DNA of 64,000 nt from positions 1-64,000 of IMG/VR virus record IMGVR_UViG_3300009149_000016. One strand, given 5' to 3'. Positions 1,874-55,408 of this stretch are shown in pieces (positions within the stretch are counted from its first letter, which is position 1; each line of letters opens with the position of its first letter). Source of the DNA: a virus. The notes under the pieces were generated by a model that was not told the origin of the DNA, made no database searches, and saw nothing but the letters and a program-made list of their open reading frames with translations. The translations under genes and the position numbers were made by a program.

Positions 1874-1910
1874 TGTACCCACTAAGGGTCGAACTACTCC
1901 TCGATCAACC
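1874..1910 (-). promoter_or_regulatory. Class II bipartite promoter-like motif
   Basis: GGTTGATC-N15-CCTTA-GTGGGTAC-A(TCATG). Confidence 0.75.
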
Positions 1911-2316
1911 GGTCCCACACATTTTTCGGATGCTCCGGGGGAGTCGCTTTGCCAAAGATTCTGCCATGCCCATCCGGCCCTTCGAGGACCCACTTGTCAT
2001 CCATGAATCGCAAGGACCAGGTGCGCCATTCGGTCGGGATGCACGCGATGACCCTCGATTTGAATTCATGATACTCAAGAATAGCCCGTTCTTCACCCCC
2101 GGGCTCCTCGTTGTAATGGTGGTTGTAGAAGTAGGCTAGGATGGCGAGCGCAAGCTGAGCGGGCCCACTTCCACTGTAGCCACATTGGAATCCGGTAGGA
2201 CTGTGCCTTCGAAGATCAAGGCGGGGATCGACCACCCACCGAGCCCCATCCCGGTCGGCATAGACCTTCAGACCGTCGGGCTGTTGGTGCCCCAGAAAGA
2301 CGATCTCAGTTGCCAT
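1894..2316 (-). CDS. DUF6166-like protein; C-terminal tag A (NVWDRLIEE*)
   Basis: HSPTGFQCGYSGSGPAQLALAIL motif; start at MATEIV overlaps the upstream gene's end. Confidence 0.7.
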   Translation of the reverse strand: MATEIVFLGHQQPDGLKVYADRDGARWVVDPRLDLRRHSPTGFQCGYSGSGPAQLALAILAYFYNHHYNEEPGGEERAILEYHEFKSRVIACIPTEWRTWSLRFMDDKWVLEGPDGHGRIFGKATPPEHPKNVWDRLIEE

Positions 2317-2539
2317 GGGTCCGGACGGTCTGTTCGATTTCGTCGAGCCTCTTGAGGATGAGGTTGGCGACGTACATGATCGCATACCAGGTCTGTCCCG
2401 GAGCCTTTCGGCAAAGCTCGCAGCGGGGTTGGTGGCTTCCATCGGTGAGTTGAACCGGCGCGATGGCAACATCATCGGTGCCGCAAGCCTCACATCGCCC
2501 AATGATCGAATGCTCAACGATTTCAACTCGGGAAGACAT
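2306..2539 (-). CDS. Small Zn-finger-like hypothetical protein
   Basis: Two CxxC pairs; GGTGTA 9 nt before the ATG. Confidence 0.7.
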   Translation of the reverse strand: MSSRVEIVEHSIIGRCEACGTDDVAIAPVQLTDGSHQPRCELCRKAPGQTWYAIMYVANLILKRLDEIEQTVRTHGN

Positions 2540-2557
2540 GCCTCCCTCTACACCGAG

Positions 2558-2788
2558 TCACCAGAAGTAGTACAGCTTGTCCCATCGAGCCAGGCGACAG
2601 GCCTTCCGAGCGGGTTGCAAGACCGTCCACCCGTCCTTTTCCTCGACGACATCCCACTCGTAACCGCCCCCCACCAATGTCCAACCGATTGGGGTTTCCT
2701 TCCAATCAGCCTTAATGAGAAACCACCCTGAGAGGGTCGGATGCTCCCGAATCTCAGTGATCGTACCAGCGGGAAGGTCTTGCAACAT
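2558..2788 (-). CDS. Hypothetical protein
   Basis: 76-aa ORF filling the gap. Confidence 0.4.
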   Translation of the reverse strand: MLQDLPAGTITEIREHPTLSGWFLIKADWKETPIGWTLVGGGYEWDVVEEKDGWTVLQPARKACRLARWDKLYYFW

Positions 2789-2858
2789 AACACCCTACCT
2801 GAAGTACAAGTAATTCCGTCCTCTGTATAACGCGAAGCGTCATGGTGTAGGTTCAAAC

Positions 2859-3464: not shown

Positions 3465-3668
3465 ATGGATTACGAGACGCTGAAAGCCGCCTGGGACAAG
3501 CTCGAACGAGGTGACCCCCTCACGGACCTTGAGTTGAAGCATCTCAAGAAAAGCGCTGAGCAAGGTCTTGCCTACCTCGAAGCCCGGGGTGAGCGGTTCG
3601 TCCTGTTCAAGACCCGGCTCGACCTGGAGACCATCAAAGGCTACATGCGGGAACGATCGAGACGATAA
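3465..3668 (+). CDS. Hypothetical protein
   Basis: GGTGTA-N9-ATG; helical 67 aa. Confidence 0.7.
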   Translation: MDYETLKAAWDKLERGDPLTDLELKHLKKSAEQGLAYLEARGERFVLFKTRLDLETIKGYMRERSRR

Positions 3669-4084
3669 TGCTCGTCCTTCTATGTGGCAACGGCGAGCTT
3701 GACTTCCTGCCCGTGTGGCCGGAAGCCATTGGCCTTCTGAGTGGAAGGTACACAACCATCCTCGCCCGCAACCGAGCCAATGAGAAGCTCGTTCCGCACG
3801 ATGTGACGAAGGAACACGAGCTTTTCCTTCTGTGCCCAGATCCGAAGCTTGAGAGGGCTCCCTGGATCTTTCAAGTCCAAGTTAATCTCGGACCGGAGAT
3901 CGGTCGCACGTTCACTCTCGACAAGATCGTTGAAAGCTGGGTCCTTCGGGTCGACACGAGCCCCCGAACCCGGTTTTTCCTACCCGACTACCAGCCGACC
4001 ACAAACAGCATCGACCCTCCCCAGATCACGGACGTGATTGGTAGACCCAAACCCGGGACCGTGTGGGATAGGATTGGCGGCTAA
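3668..4084 (+). CDS. Hypothetical protein, tag A (GTVWDRIGG*)
   Basis: TAATG translational coupling with the upstream gene. Confidence 0.7.
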   Translation: MLVLLCGNGELDFLPVWPEAIGLLSGRYTTILARNRANEKLVPHDVTKEHELFLLCPDPKLERAPWIFQVQVNLGPEIGRTFTLDKIVESWVLRVDTSPRTRFFLPDYQPTTNSIDPPQITDVIGRPKPGTVWDRIGG

Positions 4085-5376: not shown

Positions 5377-6441
5377 ATGCCCGATGAGCACCCAGAGCAC
5401 CCGCTCATTCGAATTCGCGACTACCGCTTCCGACTGACCCCCGAAACCCGGGAATTCGCTTTCAATTTGCTCCCACTGTTGCGGGCCGACGCCAACGTTC
5501 GTCGCCTGCACATCACCGATTTCCTCATTGCCTATCGAGACGAAGACGAAGAATACGCAGGGATCGGCGTTCAATTCGAACCAGAGACGGACGCACCAGC
5601 CGGCGAAGACATTCGCCAGATGCTCTCAAGCCTTGAGGACCATCACCCTCTACGGCTTTCCCCAACCCAGCGTGCCCTCACCGAATCCATTCGTCGAGAG
5701 AACGCCCCGCCACGCGTCGACCACCAAACGCTCATTCAGCAAGCCATCATGGGCCAAGAGGGGCGAGCCCGGCTTGCGGCTGCGATGATGGCACCCATCC
5801 GCCAGCGGCTTGATTACCAGTCGCTCGCTCGGCAGACCTTCATGATTGAGCAAATGCCTGAAGGGGCCCTGCCGACCTACGTGCCCCCGCCTGAGCATAT
5901 GCTGCCATCGAATGATGCAAACCCCGGGGCAGATCTTCAAGCCGCCATAGGGGTCCTTCGAGATCTCGGCACGGCCCCGGTACCGGGGAGCATCCCCATC
6001 CTGGACGGAAACATCCATGTCGTTTCCGAGCCTGAGTACGTTGGCGCGTTCCCTGTTCGCACCGAGCTTACCGTCATGCCTGCCGACGAACAGCGGGAGC
6101 CACTTGGCTGGCGGATGCGAGAGACCATCGGTATCGGCATGATCAACCCCCGTGGCCTCGGACGGTTGGGAATGACTCGAAGCGGCATCGAGAGTCTGGA
6201 AGCTCCCCCGTGGCCCGAGTGGGCGGTACCAGGCATCTGGGTCGTGAACCACACCGACGGGTTCGTAGGTCGCATCACACACGTCTACCCAGGTGAAATC
6301 GTCTTGCGTTCGCCCCGGGAATTGTCTGCCAATGGAACCCCGGAGTTTCGGCATCTCCCTCGATCCGACGACTTCACCAGGGACTTCGAACCAGCCATCG
6401 ACCCCACCCTCAAACGCACCATGTGGGATCGGCTTGGTTGA
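5377..6441 (+). CDS. Protein containing major-capsid-like segments; tag A (RTMWDRLG*)
   Basis: GRARLAAAMMAPIRQRLDYQSLARQTFMIEQMPEGALPTY and EPEYVGAFPVRTELTV..IGIGMINPRGL resemble, from recall, the N- and C-terminal parts of an HK97-type MCP of large phages. Confidence 0.55.
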   Translation: MPDEHPEHPLIRIRDYRFRLTPETREFAFNLLPLLRADANVRRLHITDFLIAYRDEDEEYAGIGVQFEPETDAPAGEDIRQMLSSLEDHHPLRLSPTQRALTESIRRENAPPRVDHQTLIQQAIMGQEGRARLAAAMMAPIRQRLDYQSLARQTFMIEQMPEGALPTYVPPPEHMLPSNDANPGADLQAAIGVLRDLGTAPVPGSIPILDGNIHVVSEPEYVGAFPVRTELTVMPADEQREPLGWRMRETIGIGMINPRGLGRLGMTRSGIESLEAPPWPEWAVPGIWVVNHTDGFVGRITHVYPGEIVLRSPRELSANGTPEFRHLPRSDDFTRDFEPAIDPTLKRTMWDRLG

Positions 6442-6952: not shown

Positions 6953-7312
6953 ATGACCATGGCCGACCCATTCTGGGACCACTTCACCGTCAAATCGGTG
7001 TCCAAGGAAGAGGTGGTCATCCATTTCCACAACTCCGACATGCAAAGTCGGTGGCTCCAATGGCTCAAAAAGTACACGGGTTATCCCCAGCAATGGCTCA
7101 TGGGGGGCCTTTTGAAGCAGCGGGAGGGCAACCATGTGGGCTTCTCCAATGAAGCCGTGGGGGCCCTCAAAGATGGCGTCGCTTTGAACCCAAAGGGACT
7201 TTTGGGCGACTACTTTCGCCTAAACGAACGCTTTATCGATGTGCTTATGAAGTGCTATCTTGGCGAACATCCGCAAGGCATCCCGACCATCTGGGAACGA
7301 CTCATGGGGTAG
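6953..7312 (+). CDS. Hypothetical protein, tag A (PTIWERLMG*)
   Basis: ORF plus class I motif. Confidence 0.7.
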   Translation: MTMADPFWDHFTVKSVSKEEVVIHFHNSDMQSRWLQWLKKYTGYPQQWLMGGLLKQREGNHVGFSNEAVGALKDGVALNPKGLLGDYFRLNERFIDVLMKCYLGEHPQGIPTIWERLMG

Positions 7313-7503: not shown

Positions 7504-7926
7504 ATGAACCAACTCGTCGCCGTCCCTTCCAAGCGGTTCCAGATCCTCAACGTCGACCAGGACATCCCCATCCGGCAGTTCGTCTCCCGACATGACTTGC
7601 CGTTCAAGCCGGGGCATGGCTTCTACGAGCACGGCAAGAAACGTGTGCTCGTGCAGGGAACGAAGGAAATCGTCCTTTGGGACAGGGGAACGAAGGAACT
7701 GTTCACGGGCAAGGAAGCGCGCCGGATGCTCGGTCTGCCCCTGACGGACCGGGACATGCACCTTAGCCCCTACAACGCGTATAGCTCTAAATACAAGGTT
7801 TTCATTCAATCCACGAGCTACAACCGCAAGCTTCTGCGTGGTACCCTGTTCCTGTACGAGATCGAAGGATGGGACAAGGAAGGCGACACGGTTTGGGAGC
7901 GGATCGTCGATATCGACTTCGTTTGA
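7504..7926 (+). CDS. Hypothetical protein, tag A (DTVWERIVDIDFV*)
   Basis: GGTGTA-N10-ATG; VFIQSTSYNRKL looks like a conserved phage motif. Confidence 0.7.
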   Translation: MNQLVAVPSKRFQILNVDQDIPIRQFVSRHDLPFKPGHGFYEHGKKRVLVQGTKEIVLWDRGTKELFTGKEARRMLGLPLTDRDMHLSPYNAYSSKYKVFIQSTSYNRKLLRGTLFLYEIEGWDKEGDTVWERIVDIDFV

Positions 7927-7942: not shown

Positions 7943-8248
7943 ATGGCCGACAAGGACAAGGACAAGCTTCTCATGGGACCCCCCGTCAAGGAAGGGAGCC
8001 GGGACCATCACTGCCTCCGAACAAGGGGCTGCAATGTGGAAGCAGGCACCGTCCGACTCATCAAGGAAGGTGAGGCGATGCACGGCGAACCGATCGTCAT
8101 GTCTGGAACGGGGCCCACCTACACGATCGACCCCGAAGAGCAAGAGAGCCCCTCTGAGAGCACTTCGGGTCCGGCCAGAGTCGCGAACCCGGCCTATGAC
8201 CAAGGATGGGAGAGGCTTTGGGGTAAGCCTGTCGTGGGGCAAGCCTAA
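7943..8248 (+). CDS. Hypothetical protein
   Basis: GGTGTA-N9-ATG; ends with GWERLW. Confidence 0.65.
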   Translation: MADKDKDKLLMGPPVKEGSRDHHCLRTRGCNVEAGTVRLIKEGEAMHGEPIVMSGTGPTYTIDPEEQESPSESTSGPARVANPAYDQGWERLWGKPVVGQA

Positions 8249-8652
8249 TGTCCGTACGTTGGCGCAAAGGTGACTTTGGCCGTTATCGATTTGAGGACAA
8301 GGACAAGCCAACCTTCGAATTCCACGGCAAGGACAAGGCTGGGCAAGTCCACCTCTGGCATGGCGGCGAGGACCACATCCGTATGATCCCCATGCGAACC
8401 TTTCAGAAGGACTGTGAGCGAAGCTGGGTCATCAAAAAGCTCAAGCCCGAAAAGCCCGAATGGCTCGTCGAGGGGGCCCGGCTCAAGTGGGGTGGCACCC
8501 AAGTTGTCGTCCGACGTATCGAACTCGATTTCTTCTCGATCTTGGATGATGATGTTCTGCGATTCTACAAGATTGCGGACGCACACAAGTATTTCGTTCC
8601 TGACATAACCGCTTGGGACCTTCTCGATCGGGACTTCCTCTCGGAGGGTTGA
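8248..8652 (+). CDS. Hypothetical protein, tag A (ITAWDLLDRDF)
   Basis: Coupled start and stop with neighbours. Confidence 0.7.
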   Translation: MSVRWRKGDFGRYRFEDKDKPTFEFHGKDKAGQVHLWHGGEDHIRMIPMRTFQKDCERSWVIKKLKPEKPEWLVEGARLKWGGTQVVVRRIELDFFSILDDDVLRFYKIADAHKYFVPDITAWDLLDRDFLSEG

Positions 8653-9617
8653 TGCCGTACCACGTCGTTTGGGAACTCCAGATTCAACAGGTTCAGCCTG
8701 AATTGTTGACCCGTCTCATCACGTGTCCAGACGTGATGCAAGTCGAGAAGATCGACGAACAACACCTTCAAGTCATGCTCGTGGAAGGACGGGCTCATGC
8801 CGAGATCGAGGGTTGGGAAGATCTCATCTCCGAGCCCAGCGGATATGACGTCTGGCAGATTGAGGGGGGCTACCGGATGCGCATAGCCGATGAACAAATG
8901 CGCACGAGCGCGTTTAATCGGATTGCCTATCCAGAGTCTTCGCAAGAAGAGCTTCAAGAAATAATTGAAAGTTCAGGGCTTTTCCCGTCGCCTTCCCAGC
9001 ATAGCTCCGTTGACACGAGGATCCCGAGTGAGAACCTCGACCAACCTCTTGAGATCGGTGGTGTCGCTAGAATCGGAGGCCAAGCAATTGGAGTCATTTC
9101 AGCAATCGACACCTCTTATAGAGGGGCCGGCGTTGAACAGACAGTGAATGTTCAGCTTTTCCTTCAGAATCATCGCCGGCTCATGATGGTTCCGGTGAGC
9201 ATGATCGATGAACAGCCAAACGATGCTCACCTTCAGATCGGCGCATACATCACGCTTGCTGAAGAGGCTGCTGAAGCAACCATCGTCGCAGTGAGAGACC
9301 AATACGCTGAGGTTGCCATCCGGGACGTTCAGCCCCAACCGTCCCAGCTTTTTCAATACTGGCAGGCTCGAACACACCCTGAACCGGCTGGTGTGGGTGG
9401 GAACGTCTCCCTTTCCGGTGGCGTCGGTGCGAGCTTGGGCGGTCGAGCGACGGCAGGGGACCCCACAGCAGAAGTTCAATCCGACCTTGCAATATACGGA
9501 ATCGACTTTACAGGGGATGAGAGCAAACCCGTGGTCGCGACCGTCGATCAGGAAGTGGGAGAGCGCCTCGACCCCCCTACGATTTACGACCGAATGTTGG
9601 ACGATTCTGACGACTGA
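8652..9617 (+). CDS. Hypothetical protein, tag A (PTIYDRMLDDSDD*)
   Basis: TGATG coupling; acidic 321-aa ORF. Confidence 0.7.
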   Translation: MPYHVVWELQIQQVQPELLTRLITCPDVMQVEKIDEQHLQVMLVEGRAHAEIEGWEDLISEPSGYDVWQIEGGYRMRIADEQMRTSAFNRIAYPESSQEELQEIIESSGLFPSPSQHSSVDTRIPSENLDQPLEIGGVARIGGQAIGVISAIDTSYRGAGVEQTVNVQLFLQNHRRLMMVPVSMIDEQPNDAHLQIGAYITLAEEAAEATIVAVRDQYAEVAIRDVQPQPSQLFQYWQARTHPEPAGVGGNVSLSGGVGASLGGRATAGDPTAEVQSDLAIYGIDFTGDESKPVVATVDQEVGERLDPPTIYDRMLDDSDD

Positions 9618-11768: not shown

Positions 11769-12185
11769 ATGCTTGTAATTCCAGCCCGCCAAGCCGCCGA
11801 CTATGAACACCTCGCCTACTATTTCTACGATCAGTTGCGGCTTCACGCCAGCATGCTTGGGCTGGAACTACCCGCCTGGGACGATTTACCCTATGCCCAT
11901 CGCCGTGCCTACGAGCTTGCCGCCTCCGAGTACATCCCGCACCCGTGTGATGAGGATGAGCACCTAGAAGAGATAACGGAGCTTCAGACCGATCTCGACA
12001 AGGCTGCGGGCAGATCAGGTCAATTCAAGCAGATCCTCGACGATTTCATCGGTGGTGACAAGGAAATCGAAGAGGCTCAGGACGCTATCGTCAAGGCTCA
12101 GGACGCTCTTGCTCTACTCAAAGGCCGGCTCAAAGATGTTCGGACGGAGATGGAGGAAACCGAATATGATGAGGCCGATTGCTAG
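11769..12185 (+). CDS. Hypothetical coiled-coil protein
   Basis: Acidic, helical ORF. Confidence 0.65.
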   Translation: MLVIPARQAADYEHLAYYFYDQLRLHASMLGLELPAWDDLPYAHRRAYELAASEYIPHPCDEDEHLEEITELQTDLDKAAGRSGQFKQILDDFIGGDKEIEEAQDAIVKAQDALALLKGRLKDVRTEMEETEYDEADC

Positions 12186-12210
12186 CTTCTTTTGATAGAA
12201 TCTCCCCATC

Positions 12211-12732
12211 ATGGCTGACATCGTATTCAACGAGCAAATCGTTGGCACCATCGCGCTTTCAGAGCACACGAGCCCTAAGGTCGCCCAGCAAGAGAACATC
12301 CTGCGAGCGGCTCATGGCGCATTCGAGATCTTTCGGAGCCTGCCGGAAGGTACCAACCTTCAGGACTTCCTGACCGCCCTGGCTCTGTCGCTCGATCTTC
12401 CAAAGCCCGAACTGGTGCAAGCGTACTTCCGGCAAGCAGGCTTGATGCACGTCGCCGCTGGGATGGACGCCGCCGACATCTGTCCCATTTGCAGTGAGGC
12501 GGTCGAGGACCACGCAGTCTCCCGTGACTGCGCCCGCTGGCGCCTCACGACCTTGTGCACCGGTCAACCCGTCAGGTACCAGGTTGCCGAGAGCGCAAGG
12601 GCTCCCTTCGAAGCGTTGCCTGAACAACCCGACGTGCCGGTTTGGACGCCACCTGAGACGCCCGCTCCCGCCGCAACGAACTTCTACTACAGCAGTTTCG
12701 AGAATCTACCCGACTGGGCGACTACTGAGTGA
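12211..12732 (+). CDS. Hypothetical protein
   Basis: 173-aa ORF with CxxC. Confidence 0.6.
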   Translation: MADIVFNEQIVGTIALSEHTSPKVAQQENILRAAHGAFEIFRSLPEGTNLQDFLTALALSLDLPKPELVQAYFRQAGLMHVAAGMDAADICPICSEAVEDHAVSRDCARWRLTTLCTGQPVRYQVAESARAPFEALPEQPDVPVWTPPETPAPAATNFYYSSFENLPDWATTE

Positions 12733-13278
12733 CGCCAGGCGGTGCCGAAGCACCACCCTTGATGCAAGCTTGGCTTCTGAATTCATCGGAATGGTGACGA
12801 TCATCCGGTCGTCATAACTATCCCCCGCCCAGATCACGACTTCAGCGCTCGTCCACTCGACCGGCGTCTCAAAGTCCTTCGACTTCGGCCGTTCCTTGGC
12901 GTCGCAGTAGGAAAGCGTCACGTGCGGATGGAAGTCTGGGAATTTCTTGCTGTACTCGACCCCGGCCTTGTCGAACGCTTTCTTCATGGCTTCCCGGAGC
13001 TTCATCAAGTCCGGAGAGTCAACGGGGCAGATCACAGGAACCGTTTCCTCGCCCGGGAAGGTGTCCAGACCCTTGCACACGCATTTGACGGGCTTGGTAG
13101 CGCTCACCACGTCGAAAGCCGCTAGGGCAGCCTTTGACACCTCTTCCATGGGCACTTCGTCGCCCATGTAGAACATCGTGATGTGGAAGGTCGATGAGCT
13201 TTCCGGCGTGCCTGGGACCTTGATTCGGGCAAGCTGGCGAGCGATCTCATGTGGGAGTTGAATTCCGAGGAATGCCAT
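12706..13278 (-). CDS. 2H phosphoesterase (2'-5' RNA ligase/Acb1-like); tag B (LASRVVLRH)
   Basis: Two HxT motifs: FHITM and PHVTL. Confidence 0.85.
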   Translation of the reverse strand: MAFLGIQLPHEIARQLARIKVPGTPESSSTFHITMFYMGDEVPMEEVSKAALAAFDVVSATKPVKCVCKGLDTFPGEETVPVICPVDSPDLMKLREAMKKAFDKAGVEYSKKFPDFHPHVTLSYCDAKERPKSKDFETPVEWTSAEVVIWAGDSYDDRMIVTIPMNSEAKLASRVVLRHRLASLSSRPVG

Positions 13279-13593: not shown

Positions 13594-14037
13594 CTATTGG
13601 TCGTCAGGCTCGTCCTCGAAAAGGTCTTCGGTCAAGGTCTTCCGACGATCCATTTCCTTGTGGTACGCCGTGAGGGCCTTTTCCCAATCGGCTTTGATCA
13701 TGAGTCGCATGCTGAAAAAGATAGGGTAACCGTTGATCGACGTGGGGACCGCCTTGTCCATGTACTCGTAGACGATGCCCAACTCGGCTCGGTCACGCTC
13801 CGGGATGCTTTCGAGGCCACCGAGCGCCAACGGCAGGAAAATCATCGGCGCCAAGCTGGCGATCTGTTCCGGGCCACCTTTGATGTGGTCGGTCGTGAAG
13901 ACCTGACCATCGCACATCGCCATGACGAACTTGGCAAGATCCTTGCGGCCCATCGCTTCGAGGGTGGCCGGACGCAAGTCCTTCCAGGCTTCGTTGAATT
14001 CGTCGAGCGGTTCGGGGGGAGGTGGGGGATCAGACAT
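13594..14037 (-). CDS. Hypothetical protein
   Basis: GGTGTA-N10-ATG. Confidence 0.7.
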   Translation of the reverse strand: MSDPPPPPEPLDEFNEAWKDLRPATLEAMGRKDLAKFVMAMCDGQVFTTDHIKGGPEQIASLAPMIFLPLALGGLESIPERDRAELGIVYEYMDKAVPTSINGYPIFFSMRLMIKADWEKALTAYHKEMDRRKTLTEDLFEDEPDDQ

Positions 14038-14667: not shown

Positions 14668-14967
14668 ATGGAGACCTTTTTGATGATCGTCGGATTTATC
14701 ATCTTGATTGTGGCTGCTTCCGCCGCCTTCGCCACGGGTCTCCATATCCGAGATCGGAGACGAGAGGATGCCGAGCGGGCTGCCAGGCGAGCCGAGTTGG
14801 AAGCGGGCGAAAAGTTGGTTCAGGAATTGGAAGCTGAAAGCGACCAGATCAACGCCACCCTCAGGCGCATTTCGATAAAGCATCACGAAAGACGGATGGC
14901 TGAAAAGGCCAAAGCCAAGGCTTCGAACCCGGGTTACACAATCTACGACCACATCAACGAGGCTTGA
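14668..14967 (+). CDS. Membrane-anchored coiled-coil protein, tag A (YTIYDHINEA*)
   Basis: N-terminal TM helix; GGTGTA-N10-ATG. Confidence 0.7.
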   Translation: METFLMIVGFIILIVAASAAFATGLHIRDRRREDAERAARRAELEAGEKLVQELEAESDQINATLRRISIKHHERRMAEKAKAKASNPGYTIYDHINEA

Positions 14968-14970: not shown

Positions 14971-15477
14971 ATGGCCGAAAGTGCAGTCGAAAACCCACTC
15001 CCTCGCCTCATCCTGGTGATCACGTTCGCCCTGGTTTTCGGCACAGGGGCAATTCTCTCCCCGTACCTTGACCAAACCACTGTGTGGGTTGGCGTAGGTG
15101 GCGCGTGTGTGTGCTGGATCCTAGGCGTCCTTGGCTGGTTCTCGACCAAGGACCGTCCCGAGCACAAAGAACCGAAGCCTGAACCGAAGTGGTCCCCGGA
15201 GGCTATCAGGTGGAAAAAGCAGCGGGATGGTCTTCGAAGAAAGCTCGCTGAGATGCAAGTTGAAATAGCTGGGCTGACATCTGATCTTGAAACAACCAGA
15301 GTTGAGCGTGATTCCGAACGATATCAGCGAACTGAACAACTTCGGCTCCTGTTCGAGAAGTCTGTCTCGGAAGGCTTGACCAGCGCCAACCCAAACACGA
15401 CCTTGGGTTGGCCCCCGCCAGAGCCCCCGGCTCCCAAGCCCAAGACCATTTACGACCGCATCAATGAGGACGAATGA
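14971..15477 (+). CDS. 2-TM coiled-coil protein, tag A (KTIYDRINEDE*)
   Basis: Two hydrophobic segments, coiled coil, Pro-rich linker before the tag. Confidence 0.7.
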   Translation: MAESAVENPLPRLILVITFALVFGTGAILSPYLDQTTVWVGVGGACVCWILGVLGWFSTKDRPEHKEPKPEPKWSPEAIRWKKQRDGLRRKLAEMQVEIAGLTSDLETTRVERDSERYQRTEQLRLLFEKSVSEGLTSANPNTTLGWPPPEPPAPKPKTIYDRINEDE

Positions 15478-37895: not shown

Positions 37896-37960
37896 GTCCG
37901 GTCCTCAAGACGCTCCCAGATCGTCGGTTGCGTCCGCTGTCGTTGGATTGACCCCGCACT

Positions 37961-38236
37961 TCATTTCTTTCCCATCAAAACATCGAACATCTTGGCCGAA
38001 TTCTTTTCGGAAGTTGCGGCCCCCATCTCTCGCAAGCCAGTCTGGAAGAGACCTTGAAGTAGCCGGGCCCCTTGCTCCCGGTCCTTCGTGATCGCCCCCC
38101 AACAGCCCTTGCAGAAGGAAAGCCGTTCTCTATTTACACCACTGGCACGAAGATACACGCGCTCTTGTGGAGTGAGATCCAAAAACTCGAAGCCCTCATC
38201 CGGCTTCTCTTTGGTGCAAAGGTCACAAATTGCCAA
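37961..38236 (-). CDS. Small Zn-finger protein
   Basis: CDLC..CKGC; GGAGG SD. Confidence 0.65.
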   Translation of the reverse strand: MAICDLCTKEKPDEGFEFLDLTPQERVYLRASGVNRERLSFCKGCWGAITKDREQGARLLQGLFQTGLREMGAATSEKNSAKMFDVLMGKK

Positions 38237-38861
38237 AATGAGCCTCCGTGAACTGCTTGAGCATAAGACCCATCAAATCGAGAAGCTGCAAGTCCCCCTC
38301 CTCAATCTTCGACCCGAGCAAGACCGCTTGCCCAAGAGGTAGGTGAACGTAGGGCATGGAATGCCGCCATAGAAGCTCACGTTCCAAGGCATAGAAGGTT
38401 TTCAGGACAGGGGCGGATGGGAGGATCTCGACAGAGGCGTCAAACCTGTGCGGGTGGCAAAGCGTTGGGTCATCAATCGAGGACATCATCCGGCAGCGCA
38501 AGGGTCGCCCCTTGTACGCAGAACACTTGTTGTCCCGAAGCAGGGGGCATGGGACAGCGCTCAAGAGCCAAACCTTGTAGTCGAGCCCATTCACCTTGTT
38601 GGACGCCTCCTGAAGGCGGTTCCGGAGCGTTGACGTCCATAGCCGCTCTTTCTTCAGATGCCGGTACAGCAAGATCCCTTCGAAGAAGCTGATAAGCACC
38701 GGGTGGTGACAGCAGTGGTCACAACCCTTTCGGCACGTGATCGGGCGGCGCATCTTGGTCAGAAGCGCTTTGCTTTGCTGCAACCACCGCCCCTCAATCT
38801 CGATCCGGGTCGCCTTGACGTCTGCAACCGCCTGTCGGAATTCAGGGGTCGTCATCGTCAT
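38223..38861 (-). CDS. YkgJ/FliB-like cysteine-cluster protein
   Basis: CRKGCDHCC..CPLL..CSAY..RPLRCR. Confidence 0.85.
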   Translation of the reverse strand: MTMTTPEFRQAVADVKATRIEIEGRWLQQSKALLTKMRRPITCRKGCDHCCHHPVLISFFEGILLYRHLKKERLWTSTLRNRLQEASNKVNGLDYKVWLLSAVPCPLLRDNKCSAYKGRPLRCRMMSSIDDPTLCHPHRFDASVEILPSAPVLKTFYALERELLWRHSMPYVHLPLGQAVLLGSKIEEGDLQLLDLMGLMLKQFTEAHFGNL

Positions 38862-39327
38862 CCTCTAGGATGTGATCAAACGCCGTGAGGGGCGCCCGGG
38901 GAACCTCTTCCGCCCGCTGCGCCCGCTCGGCCATCGTCCCAAAGCTACGAGGAATGGCAACCCGGACGCCGGGGGAGCCAGGGCGGTAGGTGATGATCAG
39001 AGCGTCCCCGTACCGAAGGGCCAAGTCCGGATGCACGTACAAGGGGCCACCCCGGGAATCGATGTCCGGCGTCACCCACTGCATGAACCGGGTGAGGTTC
39101 TCAAGTCCCTGCCGCACGCCCTGAATGCTGCCACGTCCAATAGGGACGGTCAGGAAGGGCCACTCTTCGGGCGGGTTCCAAAGGGTCGTCCACTCAGCAT
39201 CATCGTCGGCGACATCATAGGAGCGGCCGGTCTCATCGGCGCATCGTCCCATCTTGATTGCGCGATTGAAAGCGATGACCTGACGCCGAAGCCCCGCCGA
39301 ATTCACGATGATGTCGCCAATCCTCAT
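38842..39327 (-). CDS. Hypothetical protein, tag A (LTAFDHILEDDDDDP*)
   Basis: Overlapping ORF chain. Confidence 0.7.
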   Translation of the reverse strand: MRIGDIIVNSAGLRRQVIAFNRAIKMGRCADETGRSYDVADDDAEWTTLWNPPEEWPFLTVPIGRGSIQGVRQGLENLTRFMQWVTPDIDSRGGPLYVHPDLALRYGDALIITYRPGSPGVRVAIPRSFGTMAERAQRAEEVPRAPLTAFDHILEDDDDDP

Positions 39328-41260: not shown

Positions 41261-41484
41261 TTCTCCCCGGTCAACCGGAATATGTAGACTGTAACATGCC
41301 CTTCAAAGCACGTCTGCGTGATCCGACTGAACAGATAAGGCCTGCGCCGCCTCAATTCAACAGAAGCTCGGACTTCAGCACTACATTTGGGACACTTGGG
41401 ATCAGGTATGACGGGTTCGGAAGAATCGATCGCAGAAAGGATCTCATCGTCGGTCAGATCGGGAGAGTCTTCACGCTCGTCCAT
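41245..41484 (-). CDS. Small Zn-ribbon protein
   Basis: CPKC..C..GH. Confidence 0.6.
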   Translation of the reverse strand: MDEREDSPDLTDDEILSAIDSSEPVIPDPKCPKCSAEVRASVELRRRRPYLFSRITQTCFEGHVTVYIFRLTGEKWSGR

Positions 41485-42334
41485 GGTTCAAAAGGGGAAG
41501 CCTCTTGGTGGTGTCCCGTTTGAGGGGCGAAAGGCTTTCATCGGCACTGTAGCAGTATTGGCAGCCATACGTACAGGCTTCGTTGATCGTGAAGGGCTCG
41601 ACGCAGATGGCGCATCCGCACCCTTCCTTGACGGGCTCCGTCACGGGGGCGAACATGCTGCCATCCTCGCACACGCCGTGGGTGACGTACGTCGTGAGCC
41701 CATTATGTTGGGTCGGACCCGGCAAGGGGGTCGATTCCTCTCGGCAGACCTGCATCACGATGCCGTAGCGCTTGGCAATGGCCGACAGCCGGATCATGAG
41801 CTTGGCTCGTTGCTCCGGGGACCGCTTCTCAGGCATGCGGTCATTCTCCTGCAAGAACGACACGTACACCTTGTTGACGTGCCATTCGAGCCCCTGGGCG
41901 ATCTGTTCGAACCGAGCAACCACTTGCTCATCCGGGATCATGGGTATCGGGCTGAACCGCCACACGACCCGGTCAGGACCGAGAGCGTCCGCAAGCTGGC
42001 GGGTGTGAAAGAGCACCTCCGACAGCGGGGGTACCTTCCACTCAACCTCGTGCCACCCCGTGATCGTCACATGCGCCCGCATGGAGTACCGCTGGCGGTT
42101 GAGCTTGGCCCACTTCGCAAGAGGCTCCGGGTTCTTGGTCCAGAACACGAGCCCGAGTACATCGGCGGGTTGAAGGCTCCAACGATAGGGGAAGGCACTG
42201 CGAGGATCGAAAGCCACCATGTAGCCCTGATCGATTTGTTGCTCGAACCATGCCCACTTGTCCCCCGCACAGATGTCGGTCCACCGGCTCAGACTGTAGG
42301 GTAGGTTCTCCGCTCTGCCCGTCTTCATCTCCAT
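41471..42334 (-). CDS. DUF1848 family (radical-SAM-like) protein
   Basis: SLSRWTDI, VFWTKNP, VVWRFSPI, GCGC, CTYGCQYCY; start placed by GGTGTA-N10. Confidence 0.85.
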   Translation of the reverse strand: MEMKTGRAENLPYSLSRWTDICAGDKWAWFEQQIDQGYMVAFDPRSAFPYRWSLQPADVLGLVFWTKNPEPLAKWAKLNRQRYSMRAHVTITGWHEVEWKVPPLSEVLFHTRQLADALGPDRVVWRFSPIPMIPDEQVVARFEQIAQGLEWHVNKVYVSFLQENDRMPEKRSPEQRAKLMIRLSAIAKRYGIVMQVCREESTPLPGPTQHNGLTTYVTHGVCEDGSMFAPVTEPVKEGCGCAICVEPFTINEACTYGCQYCYSADESLSPLKRDTTKRLPLLNHGRA

Positions 42335-42863
42335 GCCCATCGTCTACACCGGCAAGACGGTTCCATATGGTTGGGGCAAAGGGGACCGGTTCCTCACGCT
42401 CAATCTTCGAAAGCTTCATGAAAGCCCGCAGTCCATCGTAGACTTCCAGGTCGTTTTCAACAGCACGTCCGTTGACGAAAATGTCGCCATTCGACTTGAG
42501 CATGATCTGGGCAGGCTCTGGTACCGGCCCACCCATCGGATCGTAATCCATCCCCGCCGTAAAAGTGAGGTTGCCCCCATTGGCATACGCTGGGTCAGCG
42601 ATGGTGCGATGTTCAAGCTCGGCGTCGACGACTTGGATGCTCGACCCTCTGTCGTCGGCCGAATCCAAGAAAATGTTGACTTCCGTTGGCTCAGAATCTG
42701 CTATCCACGTAGAGGAATTCGTAAACGGGGAGGCGGGATGCTCGGCTGGGACTTGCGCCGCTTCACGCTGGCGGATCTCGGCTTCCGTCTCCTCAGGATT
42801 CCAGAATGAGGAAAGCATTTCCCTCTCATCAACGTGGTGTAGATCAGAAGGGTCGTCAGGCAT
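42042..42863 (-). CDS. Acidic hypothetical protein, tag A (PTIWNRL); 3' part overlaps the next gene
   Basis: GGTGTA-N10-ATG. Confidence 0.6.
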   Translation of the reverse strand: MPDDPSDLHHVDEREMLSSFWNPEETEAEIRQREAAQVPAEHPASPFTNSSTWIADSEPTEVNIFLDSADDRGSSIQVVDAELEHRTIADPAYANGGNLTFTAGMDYDPMGGPVPEPAQIMLKSNGDIFVNGRAVENDLEVYDGLRAFMKLSKIEREEPVPFAPTIWNRLAGVDDGHGDEDGQSGEPTLQSEPVDRHLCGGQVGMVRATNRSGLHGGFRSSQCLPLSLEPSTRRCTRARVLDQEPGASCEVGQAQPPAVLHAGACDDHGVARG

Positions 42864-47177: not shown

Positions 47178-47363
47178 TCATCTTTCGTTGCAGAAAGGAA
47201 TCTTCTTCCGCTCCATCTCGGCCTTGGCCTGGCAAGAGATACACCAGGCCACTTCAGGCCAGTTGGCTCGGCTTTTTTGACAGGTGGTGCCCTGCATCAT
47301 GCAAGGCTTCTTTCCAAGCTCTAGAAGCTTCGCATAGGGCAGGGCTTCGAGGGGGCGTTTCAT
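47178..47363 (-). CDS. Small Cys-rich protein
   Basis: ATGA overlap with clpX. Confidence 0.5.
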   Translation of the reverse strand: MKRPLEALPYAKLLELGKKPCMMQGTTCQKSRANWPEVAWCISCQAKAEMERKKIPFCNER

Positions 47364-48622
47364 CCCTTGGCCTGCTTTTTCTCCTCTTGCTGGATCGCTT
47401 CATCGATCCGGGCTTCGGCCCCCTCGACCACCAACTCAGTAACGTGGATCGCCTTCATGTCGGGGTCAGAGGGCGCGTCGAACATGTAGGGCTCCAAGAT
47501 AGCCTCAACGATCCCTCGGAGCGCTCTTGCCCCCGTGGGCTTCTCGCAAGCCTTGCGAGCGATGGCATGCAGGGCATCATCGTCGAACGAAAGGGCAACC
47601 TCATCGATCGTGAACAGCGCTTCGAACTGCTTGACCAGGGCGTTCTTGGGTTCGGTCAGGATACGCACCATCTCATCCTCGGTCAGGGGAAGCGTGCTGG
47701 TGATCACCGGCAGCCGGCCGAGAAGCTCAGGGATCAGACCAAAGTCGAGGATATCATCCTCGGTAATGTTGCCGTAAACCTCATCGGCCTTGATCCTGTT
47801 GGGCTGCCCCCCGCCGAATCCGAGCCGGGCGCCCTTGTTCCGGCGCTCGCCCACGACTTCCTCGATCCCGGCGAACGATCCCGAACAGATGAACAGGATG
47901 TTGGTTGTGTCGATCATGTCGGAAGTACCCATCCCGATCTTCGAACCCATCCCACGAGGCACGGGCACAACCCCACCCTCGACAAGCTTCAGAAGGGCTT
48001 GCTGGACGCCTTCACCGGACACATCTCGGTACCCCGTCGCTCCCCGCCCGCTCTTGCGGGTGAGCTTGTCGATCTCGTCCACGAAGATGACGCCCCACTC
48101 GGCGCGCTCGATATCCCCATCGGCGTCCTGAATGAGCCCCTGAAGCATCGTCTCGACGTCATCACCGACGTAGCCAGCTTGCGTCATGCGCGTCGCATCC
48201 GACACGTAGAAGGGCAGCTTGAGCATACGTGCCACCGACCGAGCGATGTGGGTCTTGCCGGTACCCGACGGGCCCATGAGCAAGATGTTGGACTTGTCGA
48301 TTTCGATATCGCCCGCAATCCCGTCCTTGACTACGCCACGTCGTTTGAAGTGGTTGTAGACCGCAATGGCAATCGCTCGCTTGGCACGGTCTTGGCCGAT
48401 CACATGCTCGCTGAGGATCTTGAAGATCTCACGGGGCTTGAGAAGGATGTCATCCCCGCCCTGTTCCGCAGCTTCCTTGTTGCGGTTGGTGATCGCCTTG
48501 ACGGCAGAATCAATGCAGCGGTTGCAAATGAAGGGTCCTTCGTCACCACCCGAGATGATGTGCTTCACCTCGTTGGAAGGGCGACCGCAGAAGGAGCAGA
48601 CTTGACGCTTGGCTCTGGGCAT
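47360..48622 (-). CDS. clpX: ATP-dependent Clp protease ATPase subunit ClpX
   Basis: CSFCG ZBD, KSNILLMGPSGTGKT, AGYVGDDVE, FVDEIDK, RDVSGEGVQQALLK, LGF loop, TGARALR. Confidence 0.95.
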   Translation of the reverse strand: MPRAKRQVCSFCGRPSNEVKHIISGGDEGPFICNRCIDSAVKAITNRNKEAAEQGGDDILLKPREIFKILSEHVIGQDRAKRAIAIAVYNHFKRRGVVKDGIAGDIEIDKSNILLMGPSGTGKTHIARSVARMLKLPFYVSDATRMTQAGYVGDDVETMLQGLIQDADGDIERAEWGVIFVDEIDKLTRKSGRGATGYRDVSGEGVQQALLKLVEGGVVPVPRGMGSKIGMGTSDMIDTTNILFICSGSFAGIEEVVGERRNKGARLGFGGGQPNRIKADEVYGNITEDDILDFGLIPELLGRLPVITSTLPLTEDEMVRILTEPKNALVKQFEALFTIDEVALSFDDDALHAIARKACEKPTGARALRGIVEAILEPYMFDAPSDPDMKAIHVTELVVEGAEARIDEAIQQEEKKQAKG

Positions 48623-52325: not shown

Positions 52326-52753
52326 ACGGTCGCTTGGGGTGCCTGGGACTTGCGCTTGAGGAACTGGCGCTCCCAATGCTTGCTCCGGGTTCCCAAGTAC
52401 AGGACCCGGTCGTTCGGACACGGCGTGACGATCACGTTTGTCATCGGCACCCGCCCAACCTTTTTCCCACACTGAAGCTTGTAGCCGGTCCCATTGGTCC
52501 AAACGGCGCCCCGCCCGCTCGTGAGCAGTTCGCTCGCAAGGTCCATCGCGTGCGTCCGGTCAATCCGAAACCGAATGAACGTGAGAGCGCCGATGTTGAG
52601 CGGGCCGTTCGCTTCGAGGAAATCAAACTTGATCTGGGCTTTCGCTGCGGTTCGCAAGACTGCTTCTGCGACGTCTTGGACCGATTCGAGGGATTGTTGT
52701 TCGACAGCGAAGTACGTCGCCGGGGTGTTCGAAGGAAAGAAGTGGTGCATCAT
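52322..52753 (-). CDS. Hypothetical protein
   Basis: ATGA overlap. Confidence 0.6.
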   Translation of the reverse strand: MMHHFFPSNTPATYFAVEQQSLESVQDVAEAVLRTAAKAQIKFDFLEANGPLNIGALTFIRFRIDRTHAMDLASELLTSGRGAVWTNGTGYKLQCGKKVGRVPMTNVIVTPCPNDRVLYLGTRSKHWERQFLKRKSQAPQATV

Positions 52754-53538
52754 GTTCGTACGTAGTAGCGGTGGAGAAGGTCAGGGTCGTCGGGGTTGTG
52801 GCTCTCGGATTCGAGAGTGAATGCTTCCATGGGCAGGCGAGGCATCGGGGTGATGTCACCCATTGAGAGAACCACAAGATCTGGCACGATTGTCAGATCC
52901 AATGCGTCGACGAATGGCAGCGCCGCCTCATAGACCATCGCACCACCCGCTACCCACCTTGGTCGTCCAGCAAAGTACATTCTCGAAAGTTCGAACGCAA
53001 GCTCGATTTCGTTGACTGCCCGCACGCCCGTGTCTTGAAACGGACCTGGGTTGCTCGTGAGCACGATGATCTCACGCCCCTTGAGCTTTTTCCGTCCAAG
53101 CGACTCGTAGGTCTTGCGCCCCATGATGAGCACACCGCCCATCGTCCGCTGTTTGAATCGGCGCATGTCGGCCTTACGATGCCACGGGATGCCTCCGTCG
53201 GCTCCGATGACACCTTGGGGGTTGATGGCGGCGATAAGCGTCGTCTTGACCTGTTTCTCTTCCACTATGCGCTCCCAGATGGTTGGGCGACCGGCGAGGG
53301 GCCCCCAAATCTCCAAAGCTTCCTCTTGGGTGGCCTCTCGCTCTGGGATCTTGTCCAAATCCATGATCTGCTCAGGCTTGTAGACATGCCCCCGGTCGAC
53401 GAAGTAGCTCTTGTGGTCGGAAGGCATCTCTCCGGGCTTGAGGAAACGCCCCATGTTGAGCACGAGAAGCAGAAATCCATCCGTCGTTCGATGCCATTTG
53501 ACGATCTGCTTCGTTGCCAGGATGTAGGTGCGGCCCAT
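52750..53538 (-). CDS. folA: Dihydrofolate reductase fused to an N-terminal ~95-aa tag-A-bearing domain
   Basis: IAA..GVIG..GGIPW..ADMRRFK..T..LIMGRKTYESL..L.GR..VAGGAMVY. Confidence 0.9.
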   Translation of the reverse strand: MGRTYILATKQIVKWHRTTDGFLLLVLNMGRFLKPGEMPSDHKSYFVDRGHVYKPEQIMDLDKIPEREATQEEALEIWGPLAGRPTIWERIVEEKQVKTTLIAAINPQGVIGADGGIPWHRKADMRRFKQRTMGGVLIMGRKTYESLGRKKLKGREIIVLTSNPGPFQDTGVRAVNEIELAFELSRMYFAGRPRWVAGGAMVYEAALPFVDALDLTIVPDLVVLSMGDITPMPRLPMEAFTLESESHNPDDPDLLHRYYVRT

Positions 53539-53795
53539 CAAAACACTCCAAGGTGAACACAGGGGGTCTCATTGACCGGAGAAGTCCACCCCAAGATCAG
53601 ACATAGAGGACAAGGGATGTGCTCAAACTCGATACCATGCACCTTTTCCACCCGCAAGATCGCCTGAAGGTACCTCTTGGACATCGGAAAGTGATGCCTT
53701 CGAAGATACCTCCAGCCTGTCACGTACCACAGGATACAGCACGGGTGGATATCCGAGCGCAGCCCGTTGACCATGTGCTCAAAGGTGTCACTCAC
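53538..53795 (-). CDS. Hypothetical protein
   Basis: Overlaps both neighbours. Confidence 0.55.
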   Translation of the reverse strand: MSDTFEHMVNGLRSDIHPCCILWYVTGWRYLRRHHFPMSKRYLQAILRVEKVHGIEFEHIPCPLCLILGWTSPVNETPCVHLGVF

Positions 53796-54907
53796 ACGGC
53801 GACCTTGAACTTGATGTTTTCCCGGGGCATGTAGTTCTCGATCCGGAACAGCTTCATGATCTGCTCCGTCGTCACCGAAGGATCCAAAAGGGCCTCAACG
53901 TCTTCGAGCGTCCGAATGGAATCGTCAATGAAAAGATTGGGGGGCGAGTCAATGTCCCGCTCAAGCTGTTCTTCGAGCCCGGGTACGTGGTCGTACTCGG
54001 CTTGGGTACCGTCGGCTTTCTTCGTGTAGATGTGGGTATCCACGAGCGTGTGGCCGAAGATCCCAGCTTCCATGTCGGCAAACCGAGCCATGAGCGAACA
54101 CAGAAGGGCGTAGCTTGCGAGGTTGTACGGCACCCCCAACGCCACATCGCATGAGCGCTGGGTCAAGTGCAGGCAAAGCCGTCGGGGGTCGTCATAGGCC
54201 GGACCATCCTTGAAAGGTTCACTCTTGTGAATCTTGTTCAAGATTTGTTTGCACTTGGGACACCAAGCTTGCCCCCGATCAAGCACAGCAATTCCGGTTC
54301 GGGTTTGCGAACCACGAGGTGCGCCGCAGACAGGATCAAATCCGTCGTTGTGCCCATAGTGGAACACCTTGTCCACGCCCTGGTTCTGGACGTTGAAGAT
54401 GAACATGCAGTGGCAGGGGGCCCAATAGGTCTTGAGGGTCGGGGGCGTTTGCACGATGTGAGGCTGCCAGGCGCTTACCACGAGATCCCGCCGCATCGGG
54501 TTGGTCTGAAGCTGCCCCATCACCCACTTGATTTGGTCGTTCCATTCGGTGACCGGCCCATCGTAGCCGAGCCCCGTCTCATCCATACGGTAGCCGGGGG
54601 TCTCGAACCGGCGCCAGGCGGGCCCATAGGCGGCGTTGACCTTCCCGTCGTCCCGGTACCAGGGTCGCCAGAACTTGATCCCATGCCGCTCAAGGAAGTC
54701 TTGCCCGTTGGTACCCGACAGGAACCACAGAAGCTCGATCACAATGTTCTTCCACTGGATTTCCTTCGTGGTCAGAAGCGGGAAGCCATCCCTCAGATCG
54801 TGCTCGTAGTAGTACCCAAACGTTGACAAGGTGTCTACGCCAGTTCGGTTTTCCTTGCGAACGCCGTGCTTGAGCACATGGCGCACGAGATCATGATATT
54901 GTCTCAT
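53792..54907 (-). CDS. thyA: Thymidylate synthase with an insertion
   Basis: NRTGVDT, FPLLTTK, ELLWFLSG, APCH, QRSCDVALGVPYN, DTHIY. Confidence 0.95.
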   Translation of the reverse strand: MRQYHDLVRHVLKHGVRKENRTGVDTLSTFGYYYEHDLRDGFPLLTTKEIQWKNIVIELLWFLSGTNGQDFLERHGIKFWRPWYRDDGKVNAAYGPAWRRFETPGYRMDETGLGYDGPVTEWNDQIKWVMGQLQTNPMRRDLVVSAWQPHIVQTPPTLKTYWAPCHCMFIFNVQNQGVDKVFHYGHNDGFDPVCGAPRGSQTRTGIAVLDRGQAWCPKCKQILNKIHKSEPFKDGPAYDDPRRLCLHLTQRSCDVALGVPYNLASYALLCSLMARFADMEAGIFGHTLVDTHIYTKKADGTQAEYDHVPGLEEQLERDIDSPPNLFIDDSIRTLEDVEALLDPSVTTEQIMKLFRIENYMPRENIKFKVAV

Positions 54908-55133
54908 TTTCCACTTTCACGGGGAGGGGGTAGTGAATGAAGTCGAAGGTGGCGCAGGTTCCGCAGCTTCGGCACTTGTAGACGTAGATTCCATCCCGAA
55001 TGGCCTTGAACACCGGATCCACGTTGAGAAACTCACCACATTTGCAGCGGGTCACGAAGCCTTGGTCGGCAAGTAGCTTCTGTTCCAGCCGTTTCCGAAG
55101 ATAGGCGTGGTACCAGTCAACCAAGAACTTCAT
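54891..55133 (-). CDS. Small Zn-ribbon protein
   Basis: CKCG..CRSCG. Confidence 0.6.
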   Translation of the reverse strand: MKFLVDWYHAYLRKRLEQKLLADQGFVTRCKCGEFLNVDPVFKAIRDGIYVYKCRSCGTCATFDFIHYPLPVKVENETIS

Positions 55134-55408
55134 AGCCTCTCCCAGATGGTTGGGCGCTTCTGGTCCCACCCCAGTTCGGCCTCACGCACCCTGGAAGCGT
55201 GCACGAAGGCTTCCAGGGCGTCGTAGAAGTCCGTCGTGTGCAAGGTTATGCGCTCGTTGGAGCACAAGAGTCCATCCTTGACTCGCAGGGTGACCACCGG
55301 AACCTTTTCCCTCCGGTCGATCTTGAGATAAACCACATCACCTACGGCAAAAACGGTGACGTCATCCTCATCGGAGTTGGCTTCCGGGCCGATAACAACG
55401 GTCCTCAT
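55130..55408 (-). CDS. Hypothetical protein, tag A (RPTIWERL*)
   Basis: ATGA overlaps. Confidence 0.7.
   Translation of the reverse strand: MRTVVIGPEANSDEDDVTVFAVGDVVYLKIDRREKVPVVTLRVKDGLLCSNERITLHTTDFYDALEAFVHASRVREAELGWDQKRPTIWERL

Follow-up and report, generated by a model that had tools for sequence, protein, structure and literature searches.

The first 64 kb (hereafter the window) of the 107,136-bp viral contig IMGVR_UViG_3300009149_000016 (G000) encode a series of mutually unrelated proteins that share a short C-terminal peptide, here called Tag A. Tag A is a portable short linear motif kept by selection at the protein level. A flexible linker rich in Pro and Lys leads into the core [ST]-x-[WYF]-[DE]-[RH]-[LIM], after which come 0-16 mostly acidic residues. 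Gain, loss, and fusion of the tag have been independent of the bodies of the proteins that carry it. About one in eight proteins of the contig (~12% of the genes) is marked in this way, as are 5-11% of the genes in complete relatives, and nearly every gene so marked is an orphan. Because the tag is appended to its carriers, is kept in orthologues, and is absent from 119 homologues of a carrier of the DUF6166 family, we interpret it as a portable linear docking tag; it is probably an address label by which one common partner grips all of the carriers.

Enrichment and protein-level constraint

The peptide was first proposed in an initial annotation of the window, which listed 14 tails and two internal copies. 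All 14 tails are present at the genes named, and both internal copies were confirmed (PTIWNRL, 42354-42371, and PTIWERI, 53266-53283). The strict motif, [TS]-x-[WYF]-[DE]-[RHL]-[LIM], was scored in the last 25 residues of 128 proteins, that is, the 127 genes of our own gene call plus the gene at 14668, where the gene caller had preferred an overlapping minus-strand ORF. It occurs in 13 of the 128 tails, against a mean of 0.08 in residue shuffles (maximum of 2 in 2000) and 0.17 in random internal 25-residue windows, so that the predicted excess at C-termini over a shuffled background is borne out. The first 25 residues of the same proteins hold one strict match and the reversed motif none, and the density of the motif in tails is ~33-fold that of internal positions. 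When three-residue patterns enriched in the last 16 residues were sought without prior choice of motif, W.RL, T.W.R, and WER came out on top, and the Tag A motif was the top unbiased match both in G000 and in the related phage G003.

Synonymous codons vary across the copies, which draw on the full set of six for Arg, on four for Leu, and on three for Thr; the constraint therefore acts on the peptide, as the initial annotation had argued from the differing codons. In non-coding reading frames the motif is at background level only. Once the last 25 residues were removed, no pairwise BLAST similarity was detected between the carriers, which upholds the claim that they are unrelated, and searches of Pfam and PHROGs gave no match for most of them, nor for 20 neighbouring proteins. 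A logo pooled from 41 tails reads [PK]-P-T-[AVI]-W-[ED]-R-[LI]-L-[ED]-D, with the core 0-16 residues from the end. The Pro/Lys linker described earlier is seen as a ~2.9-fold enrichment of Pro in the 12 residues before the tag, while the residues after the core have a net charge of -1.7 to -2.2. Soluble and membrane-anchored proteins alike are tagged, as had been stated, the latter being few. Scanning IMG/VR for the pattern PTIWER[LF] gave chance-level single matches only, one of which was an out-of-frame ORF repeated in 15 near-identical contigs.

These data effectively refute a non-functional origin of the peptide, be it by chance, by hidden paralogy, or as a nucleotide-level element that merely translates into it, and we give this explanation next to no credence. 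A nucleotide element could be argued from the Shine-Dalgarno-like GGGAG held by TGG-GAG and from the position of several tags just before the next gene. However, the distance from the tag to the next start is very variable, the codon variation extends to Tyr and Phe variants of the core, and the other frames stay at background. The enrichment is ~100-fold, the carriers are not paralogues, and the tag is kept in orthologues and across genomes.

Position on the contig

G000 has a GC content of 0.57 and is estimated by CheckV to cover ~23% of a huge-phage genome. The public runs give a subsurface metagenome as its source, and none of those listed is an RNA dataset holding the contig. Its first 61 kb consist of small genes and enzymes, namely ClpX, a Ycf46/Cdc48-like AAA+ protein, topoisomerase IB, RNA ligase, a CCA-type nucleotidyltransferase, ThyA, DHFR, NT5C, Dam, RNase HII, DUF932, dNMP kinase, and several cell-wall enzymes. 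The family-A DNA polymerase, primase, DnaB, and SNF2 helicase follow at 61-70 kb, and genes for very large proteins lie beyond 70 kb. All the tagged genes fall within 1.9-55 kb and none of the 27 genes at 61-107 kb is tagged. The carriers are small, mostly orphan, and non-structural.

Carriers in the window

Two of the carriers on the list belong to families with many homologues. The DUF6166 protein (1894-2526, minus strand) has the core NVWDRL at 1906-1923 followed by IEE, and the orthologue check suggested in the initial annotation gave a clear answer, since none of 119 other DUF6166 homologues carries the tag. The DUF3268/topoisomerase I-type zinc-ribbon protein (23093-23635, plus strand) has SQWERL at 23573-23590 and ends in SQWERLTTDHDF.., an acidic tail with a Phe after the tag. 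In its case, the earlier view that the tag is appended rather than intrinsic stands in part. The tag lies outside the Pfam match, as it does for DUF6166 and DHFR, but a zinc-ribbon subfamily of DUF3268 found in many metagenomes has the conserved end [FY]Pxxx-T-x-W-[DE]-R-L-..-DDxF, and for that family the tag is an old, conserved C-terminal element.

Most of the remaining carriers are plus-strand orphans. The one at 3668-4084 (138 residues; TVWDRI at 4058-4075) ends in TVWDRIGG, and the one at 5377-6441 (354 residues; TMWDRL at 6418-6435) in TMWDRLG. Homologues of the latter end in TLWDRLG (P0002, 42% identity) and SWWEDLG.. (P0003, 33%), and shorter homologues in G001, G003, and W01 have neither the C-terminal extension nor the tag; a search for related loci with this protein gave no match. 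At 6953-7312 is a 119-residue protein (TIWERL at 7286-7303) ending in PTIWERLMG, and at 7504-7926 one of 140 residues with TVWERI at 7888-7905 and then VDIDFV, whose end TVWERIVDIDFV is matched by that of its G003 orthologue, PTAWDLLDEDLFGE, at 48% identity. These are followed by a 134-residue protein (8248-8652; TAWDLL at 8608-8625) ending in TAWDLLDRDFLSEG and a 321-residue protein (8652-9617; TIYDRM at 9579-9596, then LDDSDD) ending in PTIYDRMLDDSDD. Farther on lie orphans of 117 residues (26277-26630; TTWDLI at 26604-26621), ending in TTWDLILD, and of 111 residues (35954-36289), in which TQWERL (36269-36286) stands directly before the stop codon. On the minus strand, the 92-residue orphan at 55130-55408 likewise closes with the bare core (TIWERL at 55133-55150; end PTIWERL).

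The membrane-anchored carriers are adjacent plus-strand genes. The first (14668-14967, 99 residues) has one N-terminal transmembrane helix, with a maximum KD19 hydropathy of 2.74, and ends in TIYDHINEA (TIYDHI at 14938-14955). The second (14971-15477, 168 residues), which ends in TIYDRINEDE (TIYDRI at 15445-15462), has a coiled-coil-like middle and a Pro-rich linker. The 161-residue protein at 38842-39327 (minus strand; TAFDHI at 38869-38886, then LEDDDDDP; end TAFDHILEDDDDDP) represents the only carrier family that is tagged in G000, G001, G002, and G003, as well as in G013 by its tail sequence; its structure model is poor (pLDDT 58).

One carrier is additional to the initial annotation. A 91-residue zinc-ribbon-like gene (37961-38236, minus strand, within 37892-38236) is closed by an in-frame TGA (37961-37963), behind which 22 sense codons without a start codon run into PTIWERLEDRT, the core being at 37907-37924. 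At its end, this extension overlaps the next gene by ATGA, and a second assembly of the source run has the TGA as well. In G001 the orthologue is untagged. Either the TGA is read through, which would yield the protein both with and without the tag, or it is a recent nonsense mutation.

Copies of the tag are not confined to C-termini. In the ORF at 42042-42863 (minus strand), TIWNRL and an acidic run are followed by 109 more open codons, which, in a different frame, run over the beginning of the DUF1848 gene (41471-42340). No indel is seen here in the second assembly, and the ORF may reflect a lost stop codon or a frameshift-linked pair. At 52750-53538 (minus strand), a 95-residue N-terminal module ending in TIWERI precedes DHFR. 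In G002 (31733-32771), a tagged 179-residue gene, ending in ..RTRFERITDDET, and a 169-residue DHFR are separate, adjacent, and overlapping genes, which indicates that the G000 form is a gene fusion.

Two weaker copies had also been annotated and both are present, one of them as a doubtful member. QGWERL at 8201-8218, in the gene at 7943-8248 (plus strand), is part of a family-specific conserved end, GW[DE]R.F..VGQA, in the orthologues. RNase HII carries the variant PTLADLG (28519-28539, plus strand) followed by LEDAD, its G000 end being PTLADLGLEDAD. In G001, RNase HII and the adjacent Dam methyltransferase (65737-67362) share a 14-residue tail, TSLFDLAMSGELDD.

Forms of the tag in related phages

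A DUF3268 alignment search of IMG/VR returned mostly untagged homologues, but led to G001 (363 kb); the same search of metagenomes gave short contigs without further tags. The AAA+ protein led to G002 (110 kb) and to G003 (437,331 bp, with terminal repeats and 100% complete), and the polymerase to W01 (LR745208.1, 485 kb). Genes were called on the whole sequences of these and of G013. The strict tail was found in 12 of 127 proteins of G000 (0.21 expected; own gene call without 14668) and in 29 of 601 of G003 (1.06 expected), where a looser pattern raises the number to ~35 and where internal and N-proximal copies also occur. W01 has none in 619 proteins. G001 has two strict tails and ~8 of the variant T-A-W-x-R-L-M-x-D-D-E-Y, and G013 ~20 degenerate tails of the type Ar-[DE]-[RHK]-L-[LM]-acidic (Ar, aromatic), often ending in D-L-F. 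Orthologues with 24%-48% identity keep the tag.

Judged by a 212-aa marker protein, the clade has at least 80 members in IMG/VR, and 28 large genomes among them were surveyed with DNA patterns, a looser version of which was dropped as too noisy. The W-form is enriched only in G000 (9 vs. 0 in the control) and G003 (27 vs. 3), and the F-form, [TS]-R-F-[DE]-R, in G020 (68 vs. 2), G018 (42 vs. 0), and G012 (22 vs. 5). From this distribution, the tag class is a property of a huge-phage clade; its form is uniform within a genome and varies between lineages. Some tails of G013, of the DUF3268 subfamily, and of the 7504 family carry Tag A together with an acidic D-L-F element at the end and might serve two partners.

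Other C-terminal and coding features were noted along the way. The 147-residue orphan at 13594-14037 (minus strand) closes with an acidic tail, ..TLTEDLFEDEPDDQ, which contains a D-L-F element and resembles the ends of SSBs (proteins that bind single-stranded DNA) or clamp clients. Another peptide motif, Tag B ([AV]-x-R-[VI]-A-x-R-[YFW]), has been reported on enzymes of G000 (window 12706-51938); it was seen at the end of the CCA enzyme (..RVALRVANRWLA) and at the ends of topoisomerase IB homologues in G001 and W01, so that Tag B, unlike Tag A, occurs in W01. TAG is the stop codon of 46 of the 127 called G000 genes, and ARAGORN finds 53 tRNA genes in G001 (21351-21503; 269-285 kb), one of them with the anticodon CUA of a TAG suppressor.

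Candidate partners of the tag

Some identities of the peptide were considered and dropped. The acidic tail argues against a membrane-targeting helix, the variable distance from the end against a PDZ-type carboxylate ligand, and the variation in codons against a promoter or an element for ribosome binding. We discarded a secretion or sorting signal because the carriers are cytoplasmic and no matching machinery was found, and TAG/TGA recoding as the source of the tag because only one copy lies behind a stop. Neither does the tag have the extreme C-terminal position, free carboxylate, and non-polar end of an ssrA-like degron, since 0-16 variable and mostly acidic residues follow the core and internal copies exist. 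The FHA domain (PF00498), a reader of pT-x-x-D, was not found in G000 and G001, which is weak evidence because both are fragments.

As the partner, we rank first, and tentatively, the phage's own ClpX, on whose zinc-binding N-domain the tag may dock. The gene (47360-48622, minus strand) is full length, with an N-terminal C4 zinc-binding domain (CxxC...CxxC) and the LGF pore-2 loop, and aligns to ClpX structures at E 1e-104. The carriers have the layout known from SspB tethering, in which a long floppy linker joins the folded body to a short peptide at the C-terminus, and they could be either adaptors, each bringing a different target to ClpX, or ClpX substrates with a timed fate. ClpP would be supplied by the host, as no ClpP family member was found in G000 and G001. 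ClpX is present in 21 of the 28 clade genomes, and all eight tag-positive genomes have it. The five genomes without both ClpX and AAA+ (G021, G023, G024, G025, and W01) have no W- or F-form tags, and neither have G005 and G019, in which the AAA+ protein and the clamp were found and ClpX was not. The tag core is conserved across lineages, like ClpX itself (52%-64% identity).

Several points weigh against this assignment. ClpX lies within one syntenic module, and since ~20 other genes share its pattern of presence and absence, the phyletic agreement is confounded by phylogeny. In the DNA-pattern survey, the W- and F-forms were both missing from 13 relatives with ClpX, which may carry other variants. 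G005 and G019 are only 62%-68% complete, so that ClpX may merely be off those contigs. The tag is unlike the E. coli XB peptide, a docking tag is explicable without ClpX or ClpP, and the internal and N-proximal copies in G003 imply that a free C-terminus is not required. A complex prediction for the dimeric N-domain of ClpX, the N-domain of the AAA+ protein, and the 38-residue tail of the 55130 protein scored 0.05 (mark, 0.32) and is evidence neither way.

In G012 (280076-282361), G014 (215750-218071), and G020 (277143-279434), the ClpX match comes in two pieces (residues ~8-123 and 118-407), ~1 kb apart in one open frame of 777-795 residues. The sequences suggest an inserted element, either an intein or an extra domain.

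The second-ranked reader after ClpX is the phage's divergent DnaN-type sliding clamp, on which the tag would dock the carriers as on a "toolbelt," bringing them to clamp-loaded, replicating phage DNA; we regard this as rather unlikely. Relatives encode a protein of 405-432 residues whose PDB profile matches are beta clamps only (1vpk, E 4e-6). The copies (G003, 326871-328118; G012, 104343-105599; G001, 244952-246244; G013, 11905-13119) are missed by standard Pfam thresholds, and in that of G012 both the N- and the C-terminal beta-clamp domain are matched collinearly but below threshold. A gene for a gamma/tau-like clamp loader is found 3-5 kb from the clamp gene, the two being neighbours in most members of the clade, and the clamp-like protein occurs in 22 of the 28 clade genomes. 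The T4 clamp epitopes are likewise short, hydrophobic/acidic, C-terminal, joined by divergent linkers, and interchangeable (PMC2988020); gp43 ends in SLDFLFG and gp55 in SLDFLYEAND. About 10 tails of W01 read S-[IV]-L-D-[LM]-F, matching the Tag A residue classes at 5/6 positions, and the Tag A carriers include some DNA enzymes (RNase HII, the G001 Dam, and the zinc-ribbon protein of DUF3268). The clamp in relatives together with the W01- and T4-like tails makes this a serious rival. The W01 tails, which resemble the bacterial beta-clamp-binding motif, are carried by proteins including DnaB-primase and SNF2 homologues (e.g., 281945-283492, 291388-296667, 392525-396214), in a genome with a weak DnaN-like ORF (457141-458049) and clamp-loader genes, and with no ClpX, Ycf46-like AAA, or Tag A. 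However, the SNF2 and DnaB orthologues keep an end of the D-L-[FLV] type in W01, G000, and G001, and never Tag A, so that the lineage seems to use another motif for its clamp. PolA, primase, and the helicases (DnaB and SNF2) of G000 are untagged; that is, the motif is not carried by the replicative polymerase and replisome proteins. Tag A, as P-T-x-W-[ED]-R-[LI]-L, fits neither QL[SD]LF, the bacterial beta-clamp-binding motif, nor S-L-D-F-L-[FY], the class pattern alone being similar. In addition, the tag core is conserved although the clamps of the lineages are only 28%-36% identical, 30-70 mostly orphan clients with some membrane proteins among them would be unusual for a clamp, the G000 fragment has no clamp gene, and G005 and G019 have a clamp but no W- or F-form tag.

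Another phage receptor, which could be the N-domain of the AAA+ protein, a 217-aa helical family, or a gene on the ~77% of the genome outside the contig, is also unlikely, if a little less so. In their phyletic pattern, ~20 genes agree with the tag. The module in question, found in tag-bearing genomes and absent from W01, comprises ClpX, the AAA+ cassette, a nitrilase-like gene, DUF1848, and others, as well as the 217-aa family, a CxxCxxCC protein, and the always-tagged 161-aa family. The best conserved of the ~20 is the AAA+ (55%-67% identity), a putative second reader (58561-60135, minus strand) that is Ycf46/Cdc48-D2-like, has an uncharacterised 230-residue N-domain, and occurs in 23 of the 28 genomes; classical AAA N-domains read short cofactor motifs. 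The 217-aa family (37242-37895, minus strand, in the window) has 64 homologues, many on contigs of 300-570 kb, and a confident all-helical model (pLDDT 88.6) with a nearly invariant C-terminus, ..LRNxLFDAIRxKK..; there was no significant PDB match for the model and no ESM Atlas entry. Yet nothing specific ties these candidates to the tag, and the AAA+ is present in G005 and G019, where the W- and F-forms are both missing. Mimicry of a host hub, for example, by an SSB-tip-like acidic end with a final Phe docking on a conserved host machine, appears improbable. It would agree with the acidic ends in L/P-F of many G013 and DUF3268-subfamily tails and with the conservation of the core over diverged phages, which is expected for a conserved host target. 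But the terminal Phe element is missing from most G000 tails, and the tag differs between sister phages (W-form, F-form, and TAWxRLM) and is absent from W01, for which a co-evolving phage partner fits better. More improbable still is a virion-loading signal, which would get its carriers packaged and injected by binding the scaffold, the portal, or the inside of the capsid, by analogy with encapsulin cargo-loading peptides and the T4 capsid-targeting sequence. A flexible linker with a short C-terminal peptide and small orphan carriers would suit a cargo, and jumbo phages package many proteins; however, carriers that are anchored in a membrane, or that are enzymes such as DHFR, speak against it, the tagged genes are all in the non-structural part of the genome, and capsid-related genes are common to the tagless W01.

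Returning to ClpX, a wider and quite doubtful proposal is that the clade runs proteome-wide addressing via one phage machine, 5%-20% of the genes being fast-evolving orphan modules, each with the one C-terminal tag of its lineage. In its boldest version, these modules would form a library of adaptors tethering host targets to ClpX, where the targets would be unfolded or destroyed, as in a natural "targeted-degradation" toolkit for host takeover. Peptide-to-hub wiring is central in eukaryotic cell biology, and in phages it is known only for a handful of clients of the T4 clamp and the T7 polymerase. If Tag A has one reader, dozens of "dark matter" phage proteins would at once gain a first functional property, and with it would come insight into how huge phages organise or time their accessory proteome. 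The tag would also provide an easy route to the partner that the carriers share, and, being short and portable with lineage-specific, co-evolving versions, it could serve as an orthogonal docking or degradation tag.

Comparison with known systems

By analogy, the form of Tag A appears to be of a known kind, in which short linear motifs bind a hub, as for SspB and ClpX, the T4 clamp epitopes, and the T7 tails. The initial annotation knew of no described motif of this type. As a principle this goes too far, since hydrophobic/acidic C-terminal epitopes that sit on flexible linkers and bring unrelated proteins to one hub have been described (PMC2988020, PMC9963277); of the particular motif and its scale, no description was found in the literature, including a survey of jumbo phages (PMC7824862). 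That survey reports that some jumbo phages encode ClpX.

In E. coli, SspB is tethered to ClpX by its C-terminal XB peptide, which binds the N-terminal zinc-binding domain (PMC9963277). The resemblance lies in the folded body, long flexible linker, and short C-terminal tethering peptide, in the full-length ClpX with a zinc-binding domain encoded by the phage, and in that the peptide need not be terminal. Unlike the single adaptor family of SspB, the phage has dozens of unrelated carriers, and no phage ClpP was found. The sequence of the XB peptide also differs from that of Tag A.

The T4 proteins gp43, gp55, and gp33 dock on the clamp gp45 by C-terminal epitopes (PMC2988020, PMC7892883). As in T4 and in bacterial clamp binding, the peptide of G000 is short, hydrophobic/acidic, and C-terminal, follows a divergent unstructured linker, and is found on unrelated proteins, and relatives of the phage have genes for a divergent DnaN-like clamp and its loader. 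The differences are that T4 has three clients where there are 15-70 here, that the polymerase and helicases are untagged here and Arg and Thr are conserved in the core, and that the replisome helicases keep a separate D-L-F type tail. The acidic C-terminal tails of T7 gp2.5 (and gp4), which dock on basic patches of T7 DNA polymerase, a family-A enzyme (PMC12339929), are similar as disordered acidic C-termini, some with an aromatic end, in a phage with a family-A polymerase. In contrast to these, the defining element of Tag A is the T-x-W-[DE]-R-L core, and several copies have no acidic tail (PTIWERL and TMWDRLG). Finally, Tag A is alike in form only to the eukaryotic two-pocket motifs, with [WYF]-x-x-[LIM], flanking acidic residues, and an upstream Ser/Thr. 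Such aromatic-x-x-aliphatic motifs include the W-acidic kinesin-light-chain motifs and the Atg8/LC3-interacting regions, whose readers are TPR domains and ubiquitin-like folds, none of which was identified here.

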